From contig CM000431.1 in assembly GCA_000165345.1 (NCBI GenBank), forward strand, positions 928,001 to 992,000: a DNA stretch of 64,000 nucleotides, written 5' to 3'. The notes under the pieces were generated by a model. The model did not search any database, had not been told where the DNA came from, and was given only the letters and a program-made list of their open reading frames with translations. Every line of letters begins with the position of its first letter. Position 1 is the stretch's first letter. Shown here piece by piece: positions 4,020-62,592 of the stretch. A program made the translations under genes and the position numbers.

Positions 4020-4644
4020 TTTCTTACTTAATTATTGAATCTCCAATTCGAAATCCAAATAGATTCTTCCTCATGCTATGGGTGAATTAATTCAAAAAAA
4101 TAAAATAAAATAATCCAATTGATGAAAACTCTAATTTAACTTAATGAATGAAAGATATTACTCACTGTAGATAAGATAATTGAAAGTGGAACAAGTAACC
4201 CAACTTTCTCTATCTTACTCAATTCACAATATCCGAAGTAATTAATCGTTAAAATAATTTCTTTTTAAACCGATTTATTATTATTACTTTTATTTATTTT
4301 TTTTTTTATATTTTTTAAATTACGTAATTATTTATTAATTTCAGAACATGTGGGGAAATGTGCAAGAAAAGACACGTAAGTGCATGAATTTCGGTGCATG
4401 CAATATAAATTAGCAATCAAATTACAAAAAAATCATATTTGTCCGGTACTCTAATAAATCTATATAATTAATTTGAGTAAAACTTATATTAAACATCTTT
4501 TTGAGAATGAATACATCAATTTATATTGAGCATTTTTGGTAGAAAATTAATTTTAATAATTAGTTCAAGATAACTACAAAGAAATTATTAAATTTGTGAG
4601 TAAACTGGATGAAATTAAGACTATTTACTTTAATAACTTATTAA

Positions 4645-7600
4645 TTGGGAATATTTAAGCTGGAAATTAACTTTTTAATAACATTTAATAAAATGAATTC
4701 TCTTGATTTACAAGTTAATGGAATGACATGTACGTCATGTGCTACTACAATAAAAAACTTATTATTACATTACAAATTTGTAAAAGATGTTGAAATAAAT
4801 ATCATTTTAAATAGTGTACGTGTAATATTGAATAAGAAAATCACACTTGATGAAAGAAAAAAGATTTGTGACACAATTAACAATGCAGGATTTATTTGTT
4901 TATTAAAGTCAAGTACAATAATGAATGACATGTTAACTTTAAGTATTGATGACCTTAAGTTAGAAGAAAGAAGTTTAGAAAGTGAAATAATTTATGGAAG
5001 TTCAAAAGATATAGCTGAACAAATTTTGAACAGTAAAGGAATAAAGTTTTTAAAATTACATCAAATACCAACAGAAGAGATGAAATTAATAGTAAAAGCA
5101 TTAGAAAATAAAGCTGGAATTATTACTATAATAAGTTATTTGAAGTGGGGACAATTATGCATTTTATTTGATGAAAATCAGATTACTATAACGCAGATAC
5201 AAGAAATTCTAGAGAAATCTGATATTTGGATGCTAAGTTATATGAAATTCTATTGTTTATTTGGTAAGGAAAAGCTTTCATGTGTAAACAATCTTAAAAT
5301 TAAATGTATTTTCCGTTTAAATTCTGATAGAGAAGGTATTAGCATAATACAAAAGATATATAATTGTTTAAGACGAAGAAATGCAAATATTGAGTTCAAT
5401 AAAGATTTTACAGCAAGTATTGGTTGTATTGTAAGTGGAATCTTTGGGATTTACAATGTATCCGTTGAAAGAATGAATGAAAATAATTTGGAGAGAAATC
5501 TTGTTCTAATGATTTGCATTGATTATAATCCTTACTTTATTTCTGGGAGGAATCTATTAAAATATATGAATGATGAAGTTTTAAAAAACTACGTTAATGA
5601 ACCAATTCTAGATGAACAAATTAATGAAAATAAATTGAGAAAGCAATACTCACATAGGTTAGTGAATTCAATGCAAATTATTACAAAGTGTAATTTGGAT
5701 GAAAGTGTTAATTACTCAAGCCTGCAAAAAATTAAAGATAAGGAGTCTCGATATTATGTTATTTGTTTTACAATTTCTTTAATTTTAACTATTATGGTAC
5801 TATTATATAATTTCTTGGGTGATAAACCCTTTATGTCCAAGTTTACAAGAATTATCTCTTTTAATACAATCAAATCTTTGCAAGATCAAACAGGATTATC
5901 TGGTATTAGTTGGAAATATTTGATAAATTTAATATTAGTCACAGTAGTGGTATATTTATGTGGATATACATTTCATAAGAAAGGAATCAAAAGTATGCTA
6001 TATTTGAATCCAAATATGTATAGCTTAATTTCACTTGGAACAAATACATGCTATTTGTATTCACTTTATATGATGATTTATATAGCAATAATATCTTCAA
6101 AAGGTCCTGAAAATACAAAAATATATTCAGATAAGTTACCCAATTTTTTTGATATTGCTTGTATGCTTATCACAATAAGCTTATTTGGAAGAATTTTGGA
6201 TGTACATTCAAATCTACTGATATTAAGAATTATTAATAATAATAGTAATAAAAATGAAGTTGGTGAAAATGGAGATTCCATGAGGTATAATATAAAAGAT
6301 AATTTTCAATTACTTGGTGAAACTAAATTTGAATCACTTGAAAAAGTTTATTATCATTTTTCAAACTCTGAGAATTGTCAGGTATTACCTTTAGCATCTC
6401 CAAAAGATTTAAAGAAAAATAAGGAATTCCGATCAAAATATAAAAATACAGAAATTGGACAAAAAATGAATACTATGAGCATAGACTCAATTTGTTTGGA
6501 TGATATTTCACCTCAATCTATGGAAATGAAGGAACAGAGCTCAATTATTAATAATATAGTAAATGTTGATTTAATAGATTTGGGGGATGTTATTATTTTA
6601 AAAAAGGATGAAATTGTACCATATGATGGAATTGTTATTTCTAATGATATCGCAGTTTTGGATGAATCAATGATTACTGGTGAAAGCAGAATCATTGAAA
6701 AATTATATGGAAATTTTATATCCAGTGGAAGTAGAGTATTATCTGATAATGTATTCATATTTGTTACTGAAGTAGGAACTGAAAGTACTCTTGGAAAGAT
6801 TCAAAAGTTAAAAATAAAAGCAAGAGAGAGTCAAATAGAGTTACCTGGAATTATTGATATATTTTCCAGATATTTTGTACCTTCAATCATATTATTATCT
6901 TTATTGGCTTTTGTTGTTTGGTTCTTATTAGCTTATTATGACAAAGTGGATCCAGCTAGAATGTTTAATATTGACAGAATAAACTTTAATACAGAATTTG
7001 ATAATATATTTAAAGAATTTCCAATTTCATCCAGAGTTATGTTTGCACTGCATTTCTCACTTTCAATATTGGCAATATCTTGCCCATGTGTTATTGGTAT
7101 TACAGTTCCTATTGCTGTACTTATTTCAACTTCTTTAACTTCAAAAAAGAATATATTGGTACAAAACACAAATATTTTCAATAATATAGGATTTATTGAT
7201 AATATAGTTTTTGATAAAACTGGTACTTTGACAAATGGAAGACCAACTGTCAAATCTATTATTATTGATCATGAACATATTCAAGAAATAATAAGTACTA
7301 CATTTAATAATGGTTACAGTTCAAAATGGGAAAAGTCGACTGATATAGATTTTTCTAATTCTTCTATTGAAACATTTTATATTAATAAGAATTCTAATAT
7401 TCAAGAAAAAAATATTGTTTTTGAAGAATTATTCGAATCTTATTTAAAGTTTTGGTGGATTATTGGATCTTGTGAATATTATAATAATCATCCAGCTGGA
7501 AATGTATTAAGATCTTTCTCAATTCGTCTATTTAATAATAAAGAACAATATAAGTTTACTCAACCTATTGATTGTAAATATATTCCAGGAGTAGGAATGA

Positions 7601-42360: not shown

Positions 42361-45300
42361 ATGAATTTAACCAATGAGAATATTTCAAACCAGGGCCAGG
42401 AGATTTCAAGGAATGGGAATTTTGAGATAATTGATAATGGGAAATCCGAAGATAATAGTAAGGAAATAATTCTTGAGAAATGTAGGGTAAAAGTTTCTTC
42501 AGATGGAGTTTATGAATCATTGCCAGTTGAAAGAAAAAGTATCGATGCTAAATCCAGTGAGAAGGCAAGCGATAAAATTCAAGGGGATACTGTTTTTGAA
42601 GTTTTACCTAGATCAGAGTCTAATGCAGATGCAAGTTATAATAAAGCTGGTGACTTTGTTAATGATATCGGGATTTTTGAGTCATTACCAAAATCAACTT
42701 CTGATGCTGATTATAAGTATAATGAAAGGGTGGATATTACACAAGATAGGATTGTTTTTGAAGTATTACCACGCTCTGATAATATTGTTCACTATGATAA
42801 TGACACCAGTAATGAATCTTCTATTAAAGTAAATGAAATGATTAAAAAGAAGGAGTCAGAATTGAATAATATTTTAAAAGAGCAGAAAATTGATGGAGAT
42901 ATTACTAGTAGAAATGGGAATATAGAAAATGATCCTACTTTAGGTTTAAGTATTTATAACGAAGAATCAGTTTCTCCTCCATCTGAAACTTCGATGACCA
43001 TTTTTGAGAATTTACCAATTAAGAAAGAAAATATCGATATCGATAACGAGTTTCAATCAAATTCTATTTTATCAGACAATAATATAATTGAGAATCATCA
43101 ATCAATTTTTGAAACTGCAAACTTGTCCAGATCAAATAGTTCTTCTCATATTTCTAGCTTAAAGGATGGTGAGGAAGCTGAAAGACTAACGAGTAATGAA
43201 GTGAGTGAGCATAGTGAAATTAGTAATGATGAATGCGAAAAAGATCTAAAAAGTAATTTTGAGCTTAATAATCAATTAATTACTGATTTTAATCAAGATG
43301 TAAAAACTCAAGATAAAAAAGAGCTTTCACCACAAGTTGAGAGCAAAGCAAATCTTAATATTGTTGTAAATAGTGAGAAGTCGGTCTTTGAGGTAGTTCC
43401 ATCTGAACAATCAAGAGCTGATATTGGGTATAATTCCAAAATACCACTAAGTTTTGATGAAAGGACGGTTTTTGAATCAAAGCCTGTAGCGAATTCAAAT
43501 GCAGATGTTAGCTATAATTCAAAGGTTGGTATCACAAAAGCAGAAGAAAGGTCAGTATTTGAGTCATGTCCAATTACTGATTCGAAGGCAGATGTTAGTT
43601 ATAATTCAAAATTTCAGCCAAGAAAAGACGAAAAAATTATATTTGAATCGAATCCAATTGCTAACTCGAATGCAGATGTTGGATACAATACAAAAATTGG
43701 CTTAGAAAGACAGGAAAAGTCAACTTACGAATCAATCCCTACTATCGGGGTAGTAGCAGATGTTAGCTACAAATCCAAAGCACAAACTAATTCTGGAAAT
43801 GAAAAGTCTATTTTTGAATCTGTTCCAATTTCCAATTCAATAGCTGATGTCAGTTATAATTCTAAATCACAGCCTATTAAAGAAGAAAAGGTTGTATTTG
43901 AATCAATTCCATCAGAAAATTGTAAGATAGATGTGAGTTATAATTCCAAGTTGGATTTGAAAGGACAGGAAAAGTCAGTATTTGAATCCAATCCTATGAT
44001 GACTTCCAATGCTGATGTAGGTTACAATTCAAAGCCAGAAATAAATTTGAATGAGAAATCCGTCTTTGAGTCGGTTCCATCCAATATTTCAAAAGCCGAT
44101 GTGAGTTATAACTCGAAAATAACTAATACTTCTGAGAAGTCAATCTTTGAATCGGAGCCAATAAAAAATGTTAATATAGACGTGAGTTATAATTCCAAGT
44201 TGGATTTGAAAGGACAGGAAAAGTCAGTATTTGAATCCAATCCTATGATGACTTCCAATGCTGATGTAGGTTACAATTCAAAGCCAGAAATAAATTTGAA
44301 TGAGAAATCCGTCTTTGAGTCGGTTCCAACCAATATTTCAAAAGCTGATGTGAGCTACAACTCTGTAGTAGCCAATACTTCTGAGAAGACCATTTTTGAG
44401 TCAGAACCAAGAAGGAACTCAGTGGCGGATGTAAGCTATAACTCCAGTTTGATTCCTATTTCTAAGGATGAAAAGACTGTATTTGAATCCAATCCAAATG
44501 TTGATTCAAAGGCAGATGTTAGTTATAATTCTAAAATAGAATTAAAAAAAGACGAAAAGTTTGTATTTGAGTCAAATCCTAATGTTGATTCTAATGCAGA
44601 TGTTAGTTATAATTCAAAGCTTCAGCCAAGAAAAGACGAAAAATTCATATTTGAATCTAATACGACAGTTAACTCTAAGGCAGATGTTAGTTATAATTCA
44701 AAATCTGAACCTAAAATGAACGAGAAGTCCGTATTTGAGTCCAGTCCAATTCTTAGCTCAGTTGCAGATGTTGGGTACAACACCAAAGGAGTTGGTATGA
44801 CTCAAGAAAAATCTGTCTACGAATCAGTTCCAATTAGTAAATCTAAAATAGATGCTGGCTATGATACAAAGTTGGACTTTACTCATGAAAATAATAAAAC
44901 TATATTTGAATCAAACCCATCTTGTGAATCTATTGCGGATGTTGGATATAATTCAAAGATTGAAACAAGAACAGAAGAAAAATCAGTTTATGAGTCAAAT
45001 TACGATAAAGTTTCTAAGGCTGATGCTAGATATAATTCAGATTCAAGCCAAATCTATCCTCCAGAGAAGATGGTATATGAATCAACTCCTGTTGTTGGAT
45101 TAGCTGTGGATGCAAGGTTTGCAGATCAAAACAATACAAACGAAGAGAAGCAAACAGTTTTTGTATCTCTTCCAAGGTCTGAGTCAGTTTTTGATGCAAG
45201 CTACTCGTTAAATAATGAATATAGGCAGGAAAAGACAATATTTGAGTCAGTACCCAATACAAAAGGGATCAGAATAGATGCAAGATCCAGTGATACCTCT

Positions 45301-45384
45301 GAAATAATGAATTTTCAGTCTAAGACAGTTTTTGAATCAGTACCCAAACAGTCTTATGCTGATGCAAAAAGCGGGAATATATAG
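42361..45384 (+). CDS. Tandem-repeat protein of 1007 aa. The first 330 aa or so are non-repetitive except for three degenerate repeat copies. About 24 tandem 27-29-aa repeats follow, with consensus EKSVFESxPxxNSxADVSYNSK(x5-7). No signal peptide is evident.
   Basis: Direct reading of the translation shows the periodicity (...SVFESNPMMTSNADVGYNSKPEINLNEK / SVFESVPSNISKADVSYNSKITNTSEK / SIFESEPIKNVNIDVSYNSKLDLKGQEK ...). The repeat family is not one I recognise. Confidence 0.6.
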   Translation: MNLTNENISNQGQEISRNGNFEIIDNGKSEDNSKEIILEKCRVKVSSDGVYESLPVERKSIDAKSSEKASDKIQGDTVFEVLPRSESNADASYNKAGDFVNDIGIFESLPKSTSDADYKYNERVDITQDRIVFEVLPRSDNIVHYDNDTSNESSIKVNEMIKKKESELNNILKEQKIDGDITSRNGNIENDPTLGLSIYNEESVSPPSETSMTIFENLPIKKENIDIDNEFQSNSILSDNNIIENHQSIFETANLSRSNSSSHISSLKDGEEAERLTSNEVSEHSEISNDECEKDLKSNFELNNQLITDFNQDVKTQDKKELSPQVESKANLNIVVNSEKSVFEVVPSEQSRADIGYNSKIPLSFDERTVFESKPVANSNADVSYNSKVGITKAEERSVFESCPITDSKADVSYNSKFQPRKDEKIIFESNPIANSNADVGYNTKIGLERQEKSTYESIPTIGVVADVSYKSKAQTNSGNEKSIFESVPISNSIADVSYNSKSQPIKEEKVVFESIPSENCKIDVSYNSKLDLKGQEKSVFESNPMMTSNADVGYNSKPEINLNEKSVFESVPSNISKADVSYNSKITNTSEKSIFESEPIKNVNIDVSYNSKLDLKGQEKSVFESNPMMTSNADVGYNSKPEINLNEKSVFESVPTNISKADVSYNSVVANTSEKTIFESEPRRNSVADVSYNSSLIPISKDEKTVFESNPNVDSKADVSYNSKIELKKDEKFVFESNPNVDSNADVSYNSKLQPRKDEKFIFESNTTVNSKADVSYNSKSEPKMNEKSVFESSPILSSVADVGYNTKGVGMTQEKSVYESVPISKSKIDAGYDTKLDFTHENNKTIFESNPSCESIADVGYNSKIETRTEEKSVYESNYDKVSKADARYNSDSSQIYPPEKMVYESTPVVGLAVDARFADQNNTNEEKQTVFVSLPRSESVFDASYSLNNEYRQEKTIFESVPNTKGIRIDARSSDTSEIMNFQSKTVFESVPKQSYADAKSGNI
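43933..44430 (+). repeat. Two tandem near-identical copies of a 249-bp unit. Each unit holds three protein repeats and lies inside the repeat-protein CDS.
   Basis: The stretch gtgagttataattccaagttggatttgaaaggacaggaaaagtcagtatttgaatccaatcctatgatgacttccaatgctgatgtaggttacaattcaaagccagaaataaatttgaatgagaaatccgtctttgagtcggttcca... occurs at 43933 and again at 44182. Only a few substitutions separate the copies over about 180 bp. Confidence 0.8.
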
Positions 45385-54825: not shown

Positions 54826-55466
54826 TTTTGACTCTAATACTATTCTTTATATTATTAATAATTTTAAAAATCTTGTATAATTTTGTTTGTTGATTGTAAA
54901 CAATTAATTCAAGATTATACCTTTTTTTTTAACAAGCCTAATAAACAAAATTACAAGCTTTTATTATGAATTCTTGAACTTTATCTCTATTTATATGAAA
55001 TTTAAATAAATATTATTTATAATATAAATTTAAATAATATTTATATTTTTTTATTAGATCGAGTTTATGACGTAATTATTATTATTTTTTTTTTTAAATA
55101 ATTTATTGCCATTACGTGTCCCGTTTTACCGGCATGTAAATCTTAAACTGGTTTTCCCCCCACTTGCAAGGGAAAAAATTAATAACATTACACGTAATAA
55201 AAATATTAATAGTTTTGTGGGAAAAAAAAAATTGGAAATTATAATATAGACTAAGACTAATTAAATTCAAGAACTATCTATGATGTACTGAGTTTTTCTT
55301 TTTTACCAAGAAAAATTTCTGTTTGAAGTTTGAATTAAGTAATTCTTTTCAATAGTGCATTTTGGAGGGATTTACTTACCTACCTTAAATATATATTAAT
55401 CAATTAATGTATAACAGTCTATTACTAAGATTTATTAACAATTAGATATTGAAATTTCAAAGGTAA

Positions 55467-58398
55467 ATGGCAAGATTATCACTACATCCAAGAATATTTG
55501 AATCCGAGTATTCGGCAGAAACAGTAAGTTCAAAAGGAAGTTTTGATCATTAGATTTTTTTTTTTTCTATTGGTCTATCTTCTATATACCTATTTTTTCT
55601 TTTTTTTTGAACCAAATTACTCTCATATAAAATTATTGAAATAGGATAATTATTTAGAAGAAAATGTATCAAATTTGAATAAAAATGGCTGGTCTGGAAG
55701 GAAGATACAAAAATCAGTTTTACCAAATAAAAGAAGATCTATTTCTATTGGACAAAGTAGAAATGATGACTCTGAAACTACTAGACTTTCAAGAACATCT
55801 ATCAATTTGAAGGGACAAATAGATCAAAATAAATCATTTTTTTCAAAAAGCTCGTCAGATCAACTACCAAATGAAGAACTTGATAAGCTTTGTAATCAAT
55901 GCTTAAATCTACTTAGACAAAATAAAATATCTTCAAAGAATGCATTTGATATCCTTCTAATTGATCACTTAAATGATATTGTAAATGTACAAGATTCTCA
56001 AAATGAAGAAGAAAAATCAAATATAATTAAAAAAGAAAACAAAGAGAATGTTTCTAAAATTAACAATAATTCAAAAGAAAAGAATATTGAAATAGATAAA
56101 TCAAAGATGAATAAAGGAGAATTTCATAATGAGATGATAAGCTCAGAAACAACCTCTCAGGATACTAATTTTCAAAAATTCCAAAGAGCTGCAGTAACAT
56201 TGGAAGCATCAGCTAGAATATATGGATATAGAGTAGATTCGACATTTGATAATGCTTATAGGATTTTATCTAACATAAAAAGTGGACAAATTTTAGCTAG
56301 AAATGATTCAGATTGTGAAGAAGATGAAAAAGATCAGCAAGAAGATGATTCTTCTGGTAATAGATTAGAAGAGTCAAGTAAGAAGAAAAAATATAAAAGA
56401 AACTTGATTTTTTCTGGAGAAAATAATACTATAGTGAGCAATCCAGAATCTATTACATTAAAGGAGTTTGAAAAAACTAAAGAAATGAGTGAGAAGCCAT
56501 TTTTTGTTAATTTTTTGAATGATAAGGTTAAAATAGATAATATTAGATTTGGATTAGACTATAATAATATTGGTTCAATTTCATCAATGCTAATGAATAA
56601 CTTGGAATTGAAAGATTCATTATATAATAGAGACAAATCAGCTTCACTTACATTTAATATATCAGGAAGGAATAATTTGATAAATAGTAATAACTTTTCA
56701 TGTTCAACAATTTGTAAAGATGAATTATTCAAAGTAAATAAGAAAACATTGGATTTACTTCTTCCAAATCCAAATGAAAATTTTGGCAAGGATATTAGTA
56801 ATATTGTTTGCCCAAATTTATCAAGGATTTTTGATTCAATTCAAGAAATTACAGAGAATTATGGTGATATTAAACAAGTTAAAGATTCAACTTCTATTGA
56901 GGAATATCAACTAAATGAACAAGTAATTAGGAGATTTTTTGAATTTACTGATCCATCATTTGAGAATGATTCATTAGAATCTGAGAATAACTTTTTGAAG
57001 AAACATAGTCAGAGCATGGATGATATTGAATATGTGAATGAAAATCAAGATCTTGAATTTTTGAATAATTTTGAAGAGGAGGAGAAGGTGGAGCTTAATA
57101 TGGGATTACAAGATTTTCAAATGCATGTTGAGAGAGTTATTAAAGATTTGAATAAGACTGAATCTTCTGAACATATTTTAGAGGATTTAGATCAAAACAA
57201 AGATATTGAGATTGAAAAAAAGTCTGGTGAATTTAAGTTCAGTAAGATTGGCGATGTTCTTGATTTTCTAGCTAAAAAATCAACCAAAAGTTTAGAATTT
57301 TTCAACGAAAGAAAAAAAGGGGAAAAAAGTAATAGTGTATTTGGACAAAAGTTAAGATCAAAATCAGAAAATACGAATTTTGAAATTCCCTCTCCATTAT
57401 TAACCAATAATATATTTAATGGTATTGAATGGATGAATAATTTACCAAAGATTAAACAAACTCAAATAAACTCAAGTAGATCAAAAACTAAAAACTTATC
57501 AAGTAACAAGTTATTTGTTGGAAAGAATAGTACTACTTCAATATTTAACTATAACTTGAACCACTTATTTTGTCTGGCAAATCTTACTGGAGTTAAAATA
57601 AACTTAAGATCAATACATAAAGCTGAGAATTCAGAAGAAACTGCTGGTCAAAATTACATTACAAATGATATACTAATAAAGACAAACAACTCACAACATA
57701 TTAATAAGAATATCTTAAATAATTCTATGAGTGAACAAACAGATCTTATGGTAAATCATTGCGAAATTGAAGATCTTATGCAAGTTGAAAGTTATCTCCA
57801 ACCATTAAGCCAAGAGGAATTCTCTATAGATAATGGCAAAGATATTCTTATTCAAAGTAAATTATTATTACCATTTGATGAAGATAAGATTTCCGATACA
57901 GATATCCTTCTTGAAAAAAGTTCAAAGTCTCTTCATGTTAGAGATGAATACAACAGCTCATTAAAATTCTCCAAGTCATCAAATCATGTTGATATCGATT
58001 TAATCAAGAATGTTTTGAAGAATTCGATTCAGATTCTACAATCAGACGATTCCAATTCTTTGACATTATTTAATATTATAAATCAATCAGTAAGTTTTTT
58101 AAATAGTAATTTGTGGAATATACTTTCTGTATTTATTTCGCAAATTGTTATTATATATTAATTCAAACTTGACCACTTTCATTCTTTTTTATAGAGAAAA
58201 TTATTACAACAAGATGGTTTAAACTCCGTTTCAACTGGAATATTTTTTATTTGTATTTTACATATTTGTAATGAAAATAATTATTCTCTAAACTTATCAG
58301 ATCAAAACGCAAATTCTGACTCACCTATTGAATTAAATTCAGAAAATTATGTTCATATAATGCTTAATTTAAATTCATCCGTGGATTTACAGAAATAA
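55467..58398 (+). CDS. Condensin complex subunit 2 (kleisin CAP-H/Barren/Brn1). Proposed three exons, approximately join(55467..55523, 55646..58089, 58195..58398), each boundary plus or minus 1 nt.
   Basis: The listed ORF 55675..58161 contains the conserved Barren motif NFQKFQRAAVTLEASARIYGYRVDSTFDNAYRIL (compare NFxxASCTLDASxKIYxxRVDSVHxxxYKVL). That ORF ends ...SQIVIIY, six codons after GTAAGT at about 58090. Splicing to the AG at about 58193 continues as RKLLQQDGLNSVSTGIFFICILHICNENNYSLNL.... This matches the kleisin C-terminal winged-helix (AFxxLLHLANExxLxL). The stop is TAA at about 58396-58398. An upstream ATG exon (MARLSLHPRIFESEYSAET|GTAAGT) joined to the AG at about 55644 is plausible but weaker. 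Confidence 0.55.

Positions 58399-60192: not shown

Positions 60193-62592
<2,400 letters not shown>

Follow-up and report, generated by a model that had tools for sequence, protein, structure and literature searches.

A three-exon model for the condensin I kleisin gene of Cryptosporidium parvum

Overall structure of the kleisin gene

A 64,000-nucleotide stretch of Cryptosporidium parvum DNA (assembly GCA_000165345.1, contig CM000431.1, positions 928,001 to 992,000; hereafter the window) carries on its plus strand a long open reading frame (ORF) with the signature of the condensin kleisin. The window is AT-rich eukaryotic DNA (GC about 20-40%). From 55645 onward the frame contains no stop codon until 58159-58161; the ORF list gives it as 55675-58161, 828 amino acids (aa) from a TTG start. 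Does this frame represent the whole gene, or is it the middle exon of a spliced gene whose start codon and C-terminal domain lie outside it? An earlier reading made from the letters alone (the sequence-only reading) favored the second answer. Our analysis shows that the locus is almost certainly an ordinary condensin I kleisin gene (CAP-H/Brn1/Barren/Cnd2) on the plus strand, in which the removal of two spliceosomal GT-AG introns yields a 901-aa protein.

The gene is composed of three exons on the plus strand. Exon 1 (55467-55523, 57 nt, phase 0) contains the ATG (55467-55469) and 18 further codons (MARLSLHPRIFESEYSAET). It is followed by intron 1 (55524-55644, 121 nt, 21% GC), which runs from GTAAGT to AATAG and contains poly-T tracts; its acceptor AG at 55643-55644 is part of the TAG bounding the long open frame. 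Exon 2 (55645-58089) provides 815 codons and encodes the kleisin body. Intron 2 (58090-58194, 105 nt, 21% GC) runs from GTAAGT to TTTTTTATAG and holds the in-frame stop at 58159-58161, while its acceptor AG at 58193-58194 is reached through a T-rich tract and TATAG. Exon 3 (58195-58398) supplies 67 codons, whose product includes ...GIFFICILHICNENNYSLNL..., and the TAA stop codon (58396-58398). Both introns are of the form GTAAGT...YAG and both are in phase 0, giving a spliced coding sequence of 2706 nt. They are typical of C. parvum in size and GC content, as introns of this species average 99 nt and 22% GC (PMC4637869).

Other AG dinucleotides near the two introns were considered as acceptors and rejected. 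Those at 55536, 55540, 55553, and 55657 for intron 1, and at 58106 and 58196 for intron 2, are either too near the donor or out of frame. The sequence-only reading had placed the 3' intron between a GTAAGT donor at about 58090 and an AG at about 58193 behind a T-rich tract, with the ORF stop inside it, and all of this is borne out. Its exon coordinates are right to the base apart from the length of intron 1, which it took as 122 nt. The measured length of 121 nt, with exon 2 starting at 55645, resolves the 1-nt frame disagreement that it had reported near the start of exon 2.

Comparison with deposited gene models

The spliced 901-aa product matches a protein named 'Condensin complex subunit 2 [Cryptosporidium parvum]' (P0001 in our search) with 100% identity and 100% coverage. 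The same sequence is deposited as QOY42748.1 (CPATCC_001423, IOWA-ATCC), WKS77146.1, and WRK31637.1, and our model shows no difference from QOY42748.1, and the exon structure is therefore the same. Equivalents of 899-902 aa are annotated in C. hominis and C. tyzzeri. Thus, the three-exon structure is already present in current public annotations and represents no new biology. The related locus tags CPHLJ_3g3960 and CHM_3g3960 suggest that the gene is cgd3_3960. A literature search found no main-text mention of cgd3_3960; the name occurs only in the supplement of PMC4637869, in one table row that gives the identity between C. hominis and C. parvum as 0.955.

Earlier models of the gene have a different form. 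The 2004 Iowa II model (EAZ51458.1/XP_001388130.1, 838 aa, 'partial') is identical to the frame read without splicing from 55645 up to the stop inside intron 2 (58159-58161). It agrees with exon 2 up to its residue 815; compared with the spliced model, it is without exon 1 and hence has no start codon, and in place of exon 3 it ends in a spurious tail of 23 aa translated from intron 2. In C. hominis, the UdeA01 model CUV05336.1 (840 aa) has the corresponding form. Re-annotation of the IOWA-ATCC genome, which drew on RNA-seq, full-length cDNA, and cross-species homology, made more than 1,500 updates to gene structures (10.1101/2021.01.29.428682), and an earlier re-annotation raised the proportion of intron-containing genes from 4.3% to 10.8% (PMC4637869). 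The value of the present analysis is mainly that of quality control, as a reading of raw sequence recovered a model that the 2004 and UdeA01 annotations had wrong and that evidence-based re-annotations corrected only later. Kleisin phylogenies or interaction modelling built on the truncated proteins would miss the SMC4-binding domain.

The C-terminal winged helix is restored by exon 3

The C-terminal winged-helix domain corresponds to residues 803-892 (57994-58368, plus strand) and is interrupted by intron 2 after residue 834. When fragments were scanned separately, the spliced C-terminus matched positions 704-755 of the 764-position Pfam Cnd2 profile (E 2.6e-5), whereas no Cnd2 match was found for the unspliced C-terminus alone. 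The C-terminal domain of Chaetomium Brn1 bound to the Smc4 head (6qj2_B) aligns without gaps across the junction of exons 2 and 3 (...LTLFNIINQS/RKLLQQDGLNSVSTGIFFICILHICNE..., the slash marking the junction). With a genus profile this match improves to E 0.002, and the same profile also aligns yeast Brn1 635-738, including the upstream S(K/R)xSxxVD(I/V)xxxK motif. The alignment to 6yvu_C likewise crosses the junction.

In the AlphaFold2 model of residues 774-901, three helices (803-820, 827-840, and 848-862) are followed by strands at 865-869 and 888-892, which form a two-stranded wing; the mean predicted local distance difference test score is 71.6 and the core reaches 84-94. The exon 2/3 junction is located within helix 2, so that exon 3 contributes the last part of this helix together with helix 3 and the whole β-wing. 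A Foldseek search against the PDB returned yeast Brn1 chains as its top four matches (probability 1.00, template modelling score 0.49-0.55, 24-28% identity), followed by the winged helices of ORC1, PadR/LmrR, Fur, and MukF. The winged helix is complete only once intron 2 is removed. The profile match, the gap-free Brn1 alignment, and the modelled fold together agree with the earlier proposal that the downstream exon encodes the SMC-head-binding domain of the kleisin C-terminus.

The N-terminal kleisin motif and family membership

The spliced protein matches Pfam Cnd2 (PF05786) in three stretches, with 64.5 bits and E 1.1e-17 against a cutoff of 29.8, compared with 51.3 bits for the unspliced ORF. 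The best stretch aligns residues 196-414 with profile positions 118-311 and spans the Ycs4-binding region. All sequence matches in the PDB are condensin subunit 2/Brn1 proteins. In the Pfam scan, no match to the CAP-H2 (CNDH2) family or to the cohesin kleisin families Rad21/Rec8 appeared at E up to 1; C. parvum has been reported to carry genes encoding condensin I components as well as condensin II components (PMC7016506). The SMC2/SMC4 and HEAT partners of the kleisin are located outside the window. The weak Pfam matches to ResT-TelK_cat (E 0.13), WYL_3, Crust_neurohorm, and Bac_GDH_CD are far under their cutoffs and were treated as chance.

The N-terminal kleisin motif lies wholly within exon 2 and consists of two parts, both on the plus strand. 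Part 1 (55780-56004, residues 65-139, including LRQNKISSKNAFDILLIDHLNDIV) matches Cnd2 profile positions 25-119 with E 6.1e-5, and within it residues 110-131 align with yeast Brn1 39-60. This part is invariant across 10 Cryptosporidium sequences. Part 2, the 'Barren signature' that the sequence-only reading had recognized in the main ORF (56170-56289, residues 195-234, FQKFQRAAVTLEASARIYGYRVDSTFDNAYRILS...), shows no variation within the genus; residues 193-230 align with Brn1 69-105 (NINFQKASATLDGCIKIYSSRVDS from Brn1 residue 69). Together with the C-terminal match at 704-755, the match at profile positions 25-119 shows that both terminal kleisin regions are covered by Cnd2, which was the check proposed for this gene.

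The two halves of the N-terminal motif are separated by a Lys/Asn/Glu-rich low-complexity insertion of about 55 residues (about 140-194, 56005-56169), while the corresponding spacing in yeast Brn1 is only about 8 residues. This insertion is coding sequence rather than an intron, as its sequence and length vary across the genus and the frame is always kept. A third intron at this position (GTAAAT near 55979, CTCAG near 56160) was considered, and exon 2 was found to be one open frame in 9 of 9 loci. The candidate was rejected because an intron would not keep the frame despite the strong divergence and length changes at residues ~140-194.

Exon 1 lies outside the domain. An upstream exon starting with the ATG at 55467 had been proposed with less certainty than the downstream one; the exon itself is real and is kept in seven annotated species, but it restores no domain, as the N-terminal motif is found in exon 2. 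It is nevertheless required: it provides the initiator ATG and 19 genus-conserved residues (M-x-RLS[LI]...), and the next in-frame ATG occurs only at residue 174. This first ATG inside exon 2 (56107) is located past part 1 of the motif.

Comparison with yeast and Chaetomium Brn1 (6yvu_C, 7q2y_C, and 6qj2_B) reveals the same distribution of conserved parts. The N-terminal motifs NKI..KN...LID and FQ.A..TL....KIY..RVDS align with Saccharomyces cerevisiae and Chaetomium thermophilum Brn1, as does the C-terminal winged helix (VD...K...; ST..FIC.LHL.NE), whose predicted fold matches as well. However, overall sequence identity is very low, the insertion between the N-terminal motifs is absent from Brn1, and sequence comparison hardly reveals the central HEAT-binding motifs. 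In addition, the C-terminal wing of the Cryptosporidium protein contains a loop of about 18 residues, which is predicted with low confidence.

Both introns are conserved across Cryptosporidium

Since annotations of sister species may be copied from one another, intron divergence and reading frames were tested on the raw DNA of the orthologous loci, with each protein mapped back onto its own locus. Gene order is kept across these loci, with a UBA/PUB gene on the minus strand followed by Cnd2 and a PUA gene on the plus strand. The 57-nt exon 1 and both intron positions are present in C. parvum, C. meleagridis, chipmunk genotype I, C. ubiquitum, C. canis, C. bovis, and C. ryanae. In this order of species, intron 1 measures 121, 114, 107, 104, 95, 51, and 53 nt, and intron 2 measures 105, 108, 85, 85, 88, 53, and 59 nt; the differences between species are mostly not multiples of three. 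All donors are GTAAGT except that of intron 1 in C. canis (GTAGGT). Reading through the introns meets an in-frame stop or a frame shift in every species, and for intron 1 these are in-frame stops in all species but C. ryanae, where the frame is shifted.

The exons are better conserved than the introns, and their alignments to the three closest species (C. meleagridis, chipmunk genotype I, and C. ubiquitum) contain no gaps. Exon 1 shares 88-98% nucleotide identity with these three, compared with 55-69% for the adjoining intron and upstream DNA in chipmunk genotype I and C. ubiquitum. Against C. ubiquitum, ungapped identity is 88% for exon 1 and 83% for exon 3, whereas intron 1 reaches 59% with 25 gaps and intron 2 63% with 30 gaps, similar to the flanking intergenic DNA. 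Introns 1 and 2 thus behave as spliceosomal introns do, their positions being kept while their sequence and length vary free of coding constraint.

Moreover, C. felis DNA contains a homologous MARLSLHPRR coding segment upstream and the same QS/VS donor at intron 2. In two Logan ORFs, which are unannotated and come from other Cryptosporidium-like genomes, the frame overruns this same ...QS/VS donor into junk. The Logan-derived sequences (P0002, P0006, P0009, and P0021-23) are not cDNA but ORFs called without splicing on genomic contigs.

The annotated orthologs of two species differ in form from the C. parvum gene. The C. felis condensin subunit 2 model (P0010, 801 aa; GCA_014529505.1, JABXOJ010000010.1) has ...NIIKHSVS as its C-terminus, where translation runs on into the GTAAGT of the 3' intron. 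It is without the winged-helix exon, which is present downstream in the DNA (REILSEERENSVTTGIFFICMLHICNEEGY...QQK*, about 4045-4270 of the locus sequence); at least one public annotation therefore still contains the error. This C. felis model also uses a non-conserved 5' exon, while the conserved MARLSLHPRR... exon starts at 1583 of the locus (about 1583-1640). In C. andersoni, of the gastric lineage (LRBS01000054.1, 1501-4458), the annotation of the ortholog includes an additional 5' intron and another N-terminus, and its 3' intron, at the homologous position, is 204 nt long. An RRM-domain gene (4577-5302) is located between the condensin and PUA genes of C. andersoni; the intestinal species are without it there.

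Alternative explanations

Several points weigh against the assignment and the splicing proposed here. Gene models may have been carried over between sister species, and the splicing rests on comparative evidence, on domain restoration, and on evidence-based models deposited by others. The central HEAT-binding motifs are weak, with 6q6e_A matching residues 194-292 at E 0.1 only, and Pfam and PDB sequence searches gave no match to the 'safety belt' segment that binds CAP-G/Ycg1. In addition, the E-values of the PDB sequence and fold matches are modest (0.002 to 0.02).

Three other accounts of the locus can be weighed against the three-exon gene. The gene might be collinear, with the unspliced ORF (55645/55675-58161) as its true product, ending ...NQSVSFLNSNLWNILSVFISQIVIIY and having no winged-helix domain. 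EAZ51458.1 and CUV05336.1 were deposited in exactly this form, yet the model was replaced in later annotations, has no ATG start, and loses the C-terminal Cnd2 match. Its 23-residue tail is unconserved, being frame-shifted or stopped early in other species. Moreover, a conserved, open winged-helix exon lies 105 nt downstream; an open frame of 67 codons has a chance of P ~0.0009 at the local intergenic composition, and the longest open run in the 928-nt downstream spacer is 40 codons. We therefore regard a collinear gene as extremely improbable. It is also highly improbable that only the 3' intron is real and that exon 1 is spurious, with translation starting at the internal Met174 or in a different upstream exon. 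The small size of exon 1, which matches no Pfam profile position, and the other 5' ends that are annotated for C. felis and C. andersoni would fit such an account. However, the ATG and the GTAAGT/GTAGGT donor are kept in the seven annotated species, among them such distant ones as C. bovis and C. ryanae; the MARLSLHPRR segment also recurs in C. felis DNA. The gap-free conservation of exon 1 stands out from that of the adjoining DNA, and a start at Met174 would remove part 1 of the N-terminal motif.

The last account accepts the three exons and adds a second product, in that regulated retention of intron 2 would leave a fraction of the kleisin without its winged helix and unable to close the ring on SMC4. 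In C. parvum and C. meleagridis, the length of intron 2 is divisible by three, and translation continuing into it would stop within the intron after 23-24 codons. The peptide so produced is unconserved, though, and the intron shifts the frame in other species; the strong GTAAGT donor and the polypyrimidine-AG acceptor favor efficient splicing, and nothing positively supports retention. We consider it improbable that both forms are made. One could go further and imagine retention as a regulated switch, with the truncated kleisin acting as a stage-specific antagonist of condensin ring closure in the unusual nuclear divisions of the parasite, a proposal that we hold to be very doubtful. If it were true, the intron-retaining kleisin would still bind the SMC2 neck and the HEAT subunits while failing to latch onto the SMC4 head.

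Proposed role of the spliced kleisin

For the full-length product of the three-exon gene, the arrangement known from yeast and human condensin suggests how its parts may work. The N-terminal helices would bind the neck of SMC2, and the C-terminal winged helix would associate with the ATPase head of SMC4. The central region may recruit the HEAT subunits CAP-D2/Ycs4 and CAP-G/Ycg1. By the same analogy, these contacts together would close a tripartite ring, which is expected to compact and resolve chromosomes in nuclear division.

A conserved upstream block and other features of the window

The spacer between the divergent UBA/PUB and condensin genes contains a non-coding block, TTACGTGTCCCGTTTTACCGGCATGTAAATCTTAAACTGGTTTTCCCCCCAC, at 55112-55163 (also 55052-55080). 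Whereas the spacer around it cannot be aligned, the block is kept in eight Cryptosporidium species that extend as far as C. bovis and C. ryanae, and C. andersoni retains part of it. Its motifs include GCATGT (reverse complement ACATGC), which fits the published AP2_1-like motif ACATGY, and CCCCAC (reverse complement GTGGGG), which fits the G-box G.GGGG, a motif bound by the ApiAP2 protein cgd8_810 (PMC3734150). In addition, ACCGG occurs twice in the block, at a spacing that differs among species, and the 14-mer of the block occurs only once in the window. The block is probably a bidirectional promoter element shared by the two genes. A tRNA scan and an Rfam scan of the whole window at gathering thresholds returned no match. 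In a permissive Rfam scan, a mir-308 candidate in the upstream intergenic region scored 21.9 bits against a threshold of 60 and was dismissed, and the block itself had no Rfam match.

Two other ORFs on the plus strand of the window contain tandem repeats. Within a 1007-aa ORF (42361-45384), imperfect repeats of 84-87 nt (28-29 aa) extend over 43471-44749 and form a 249-nt higher-order unit with 91% identity, which suggests that the product is a repeat-containing protein. Within a 799-aa ORF (60193-62592), about 46 copies of a GAGCCT-type hexamer, arranged in a 30-nt super-unit, are located at 61034-61335 and would encode a Glu-Pro/Leu-rich dipeptide-like repeat.

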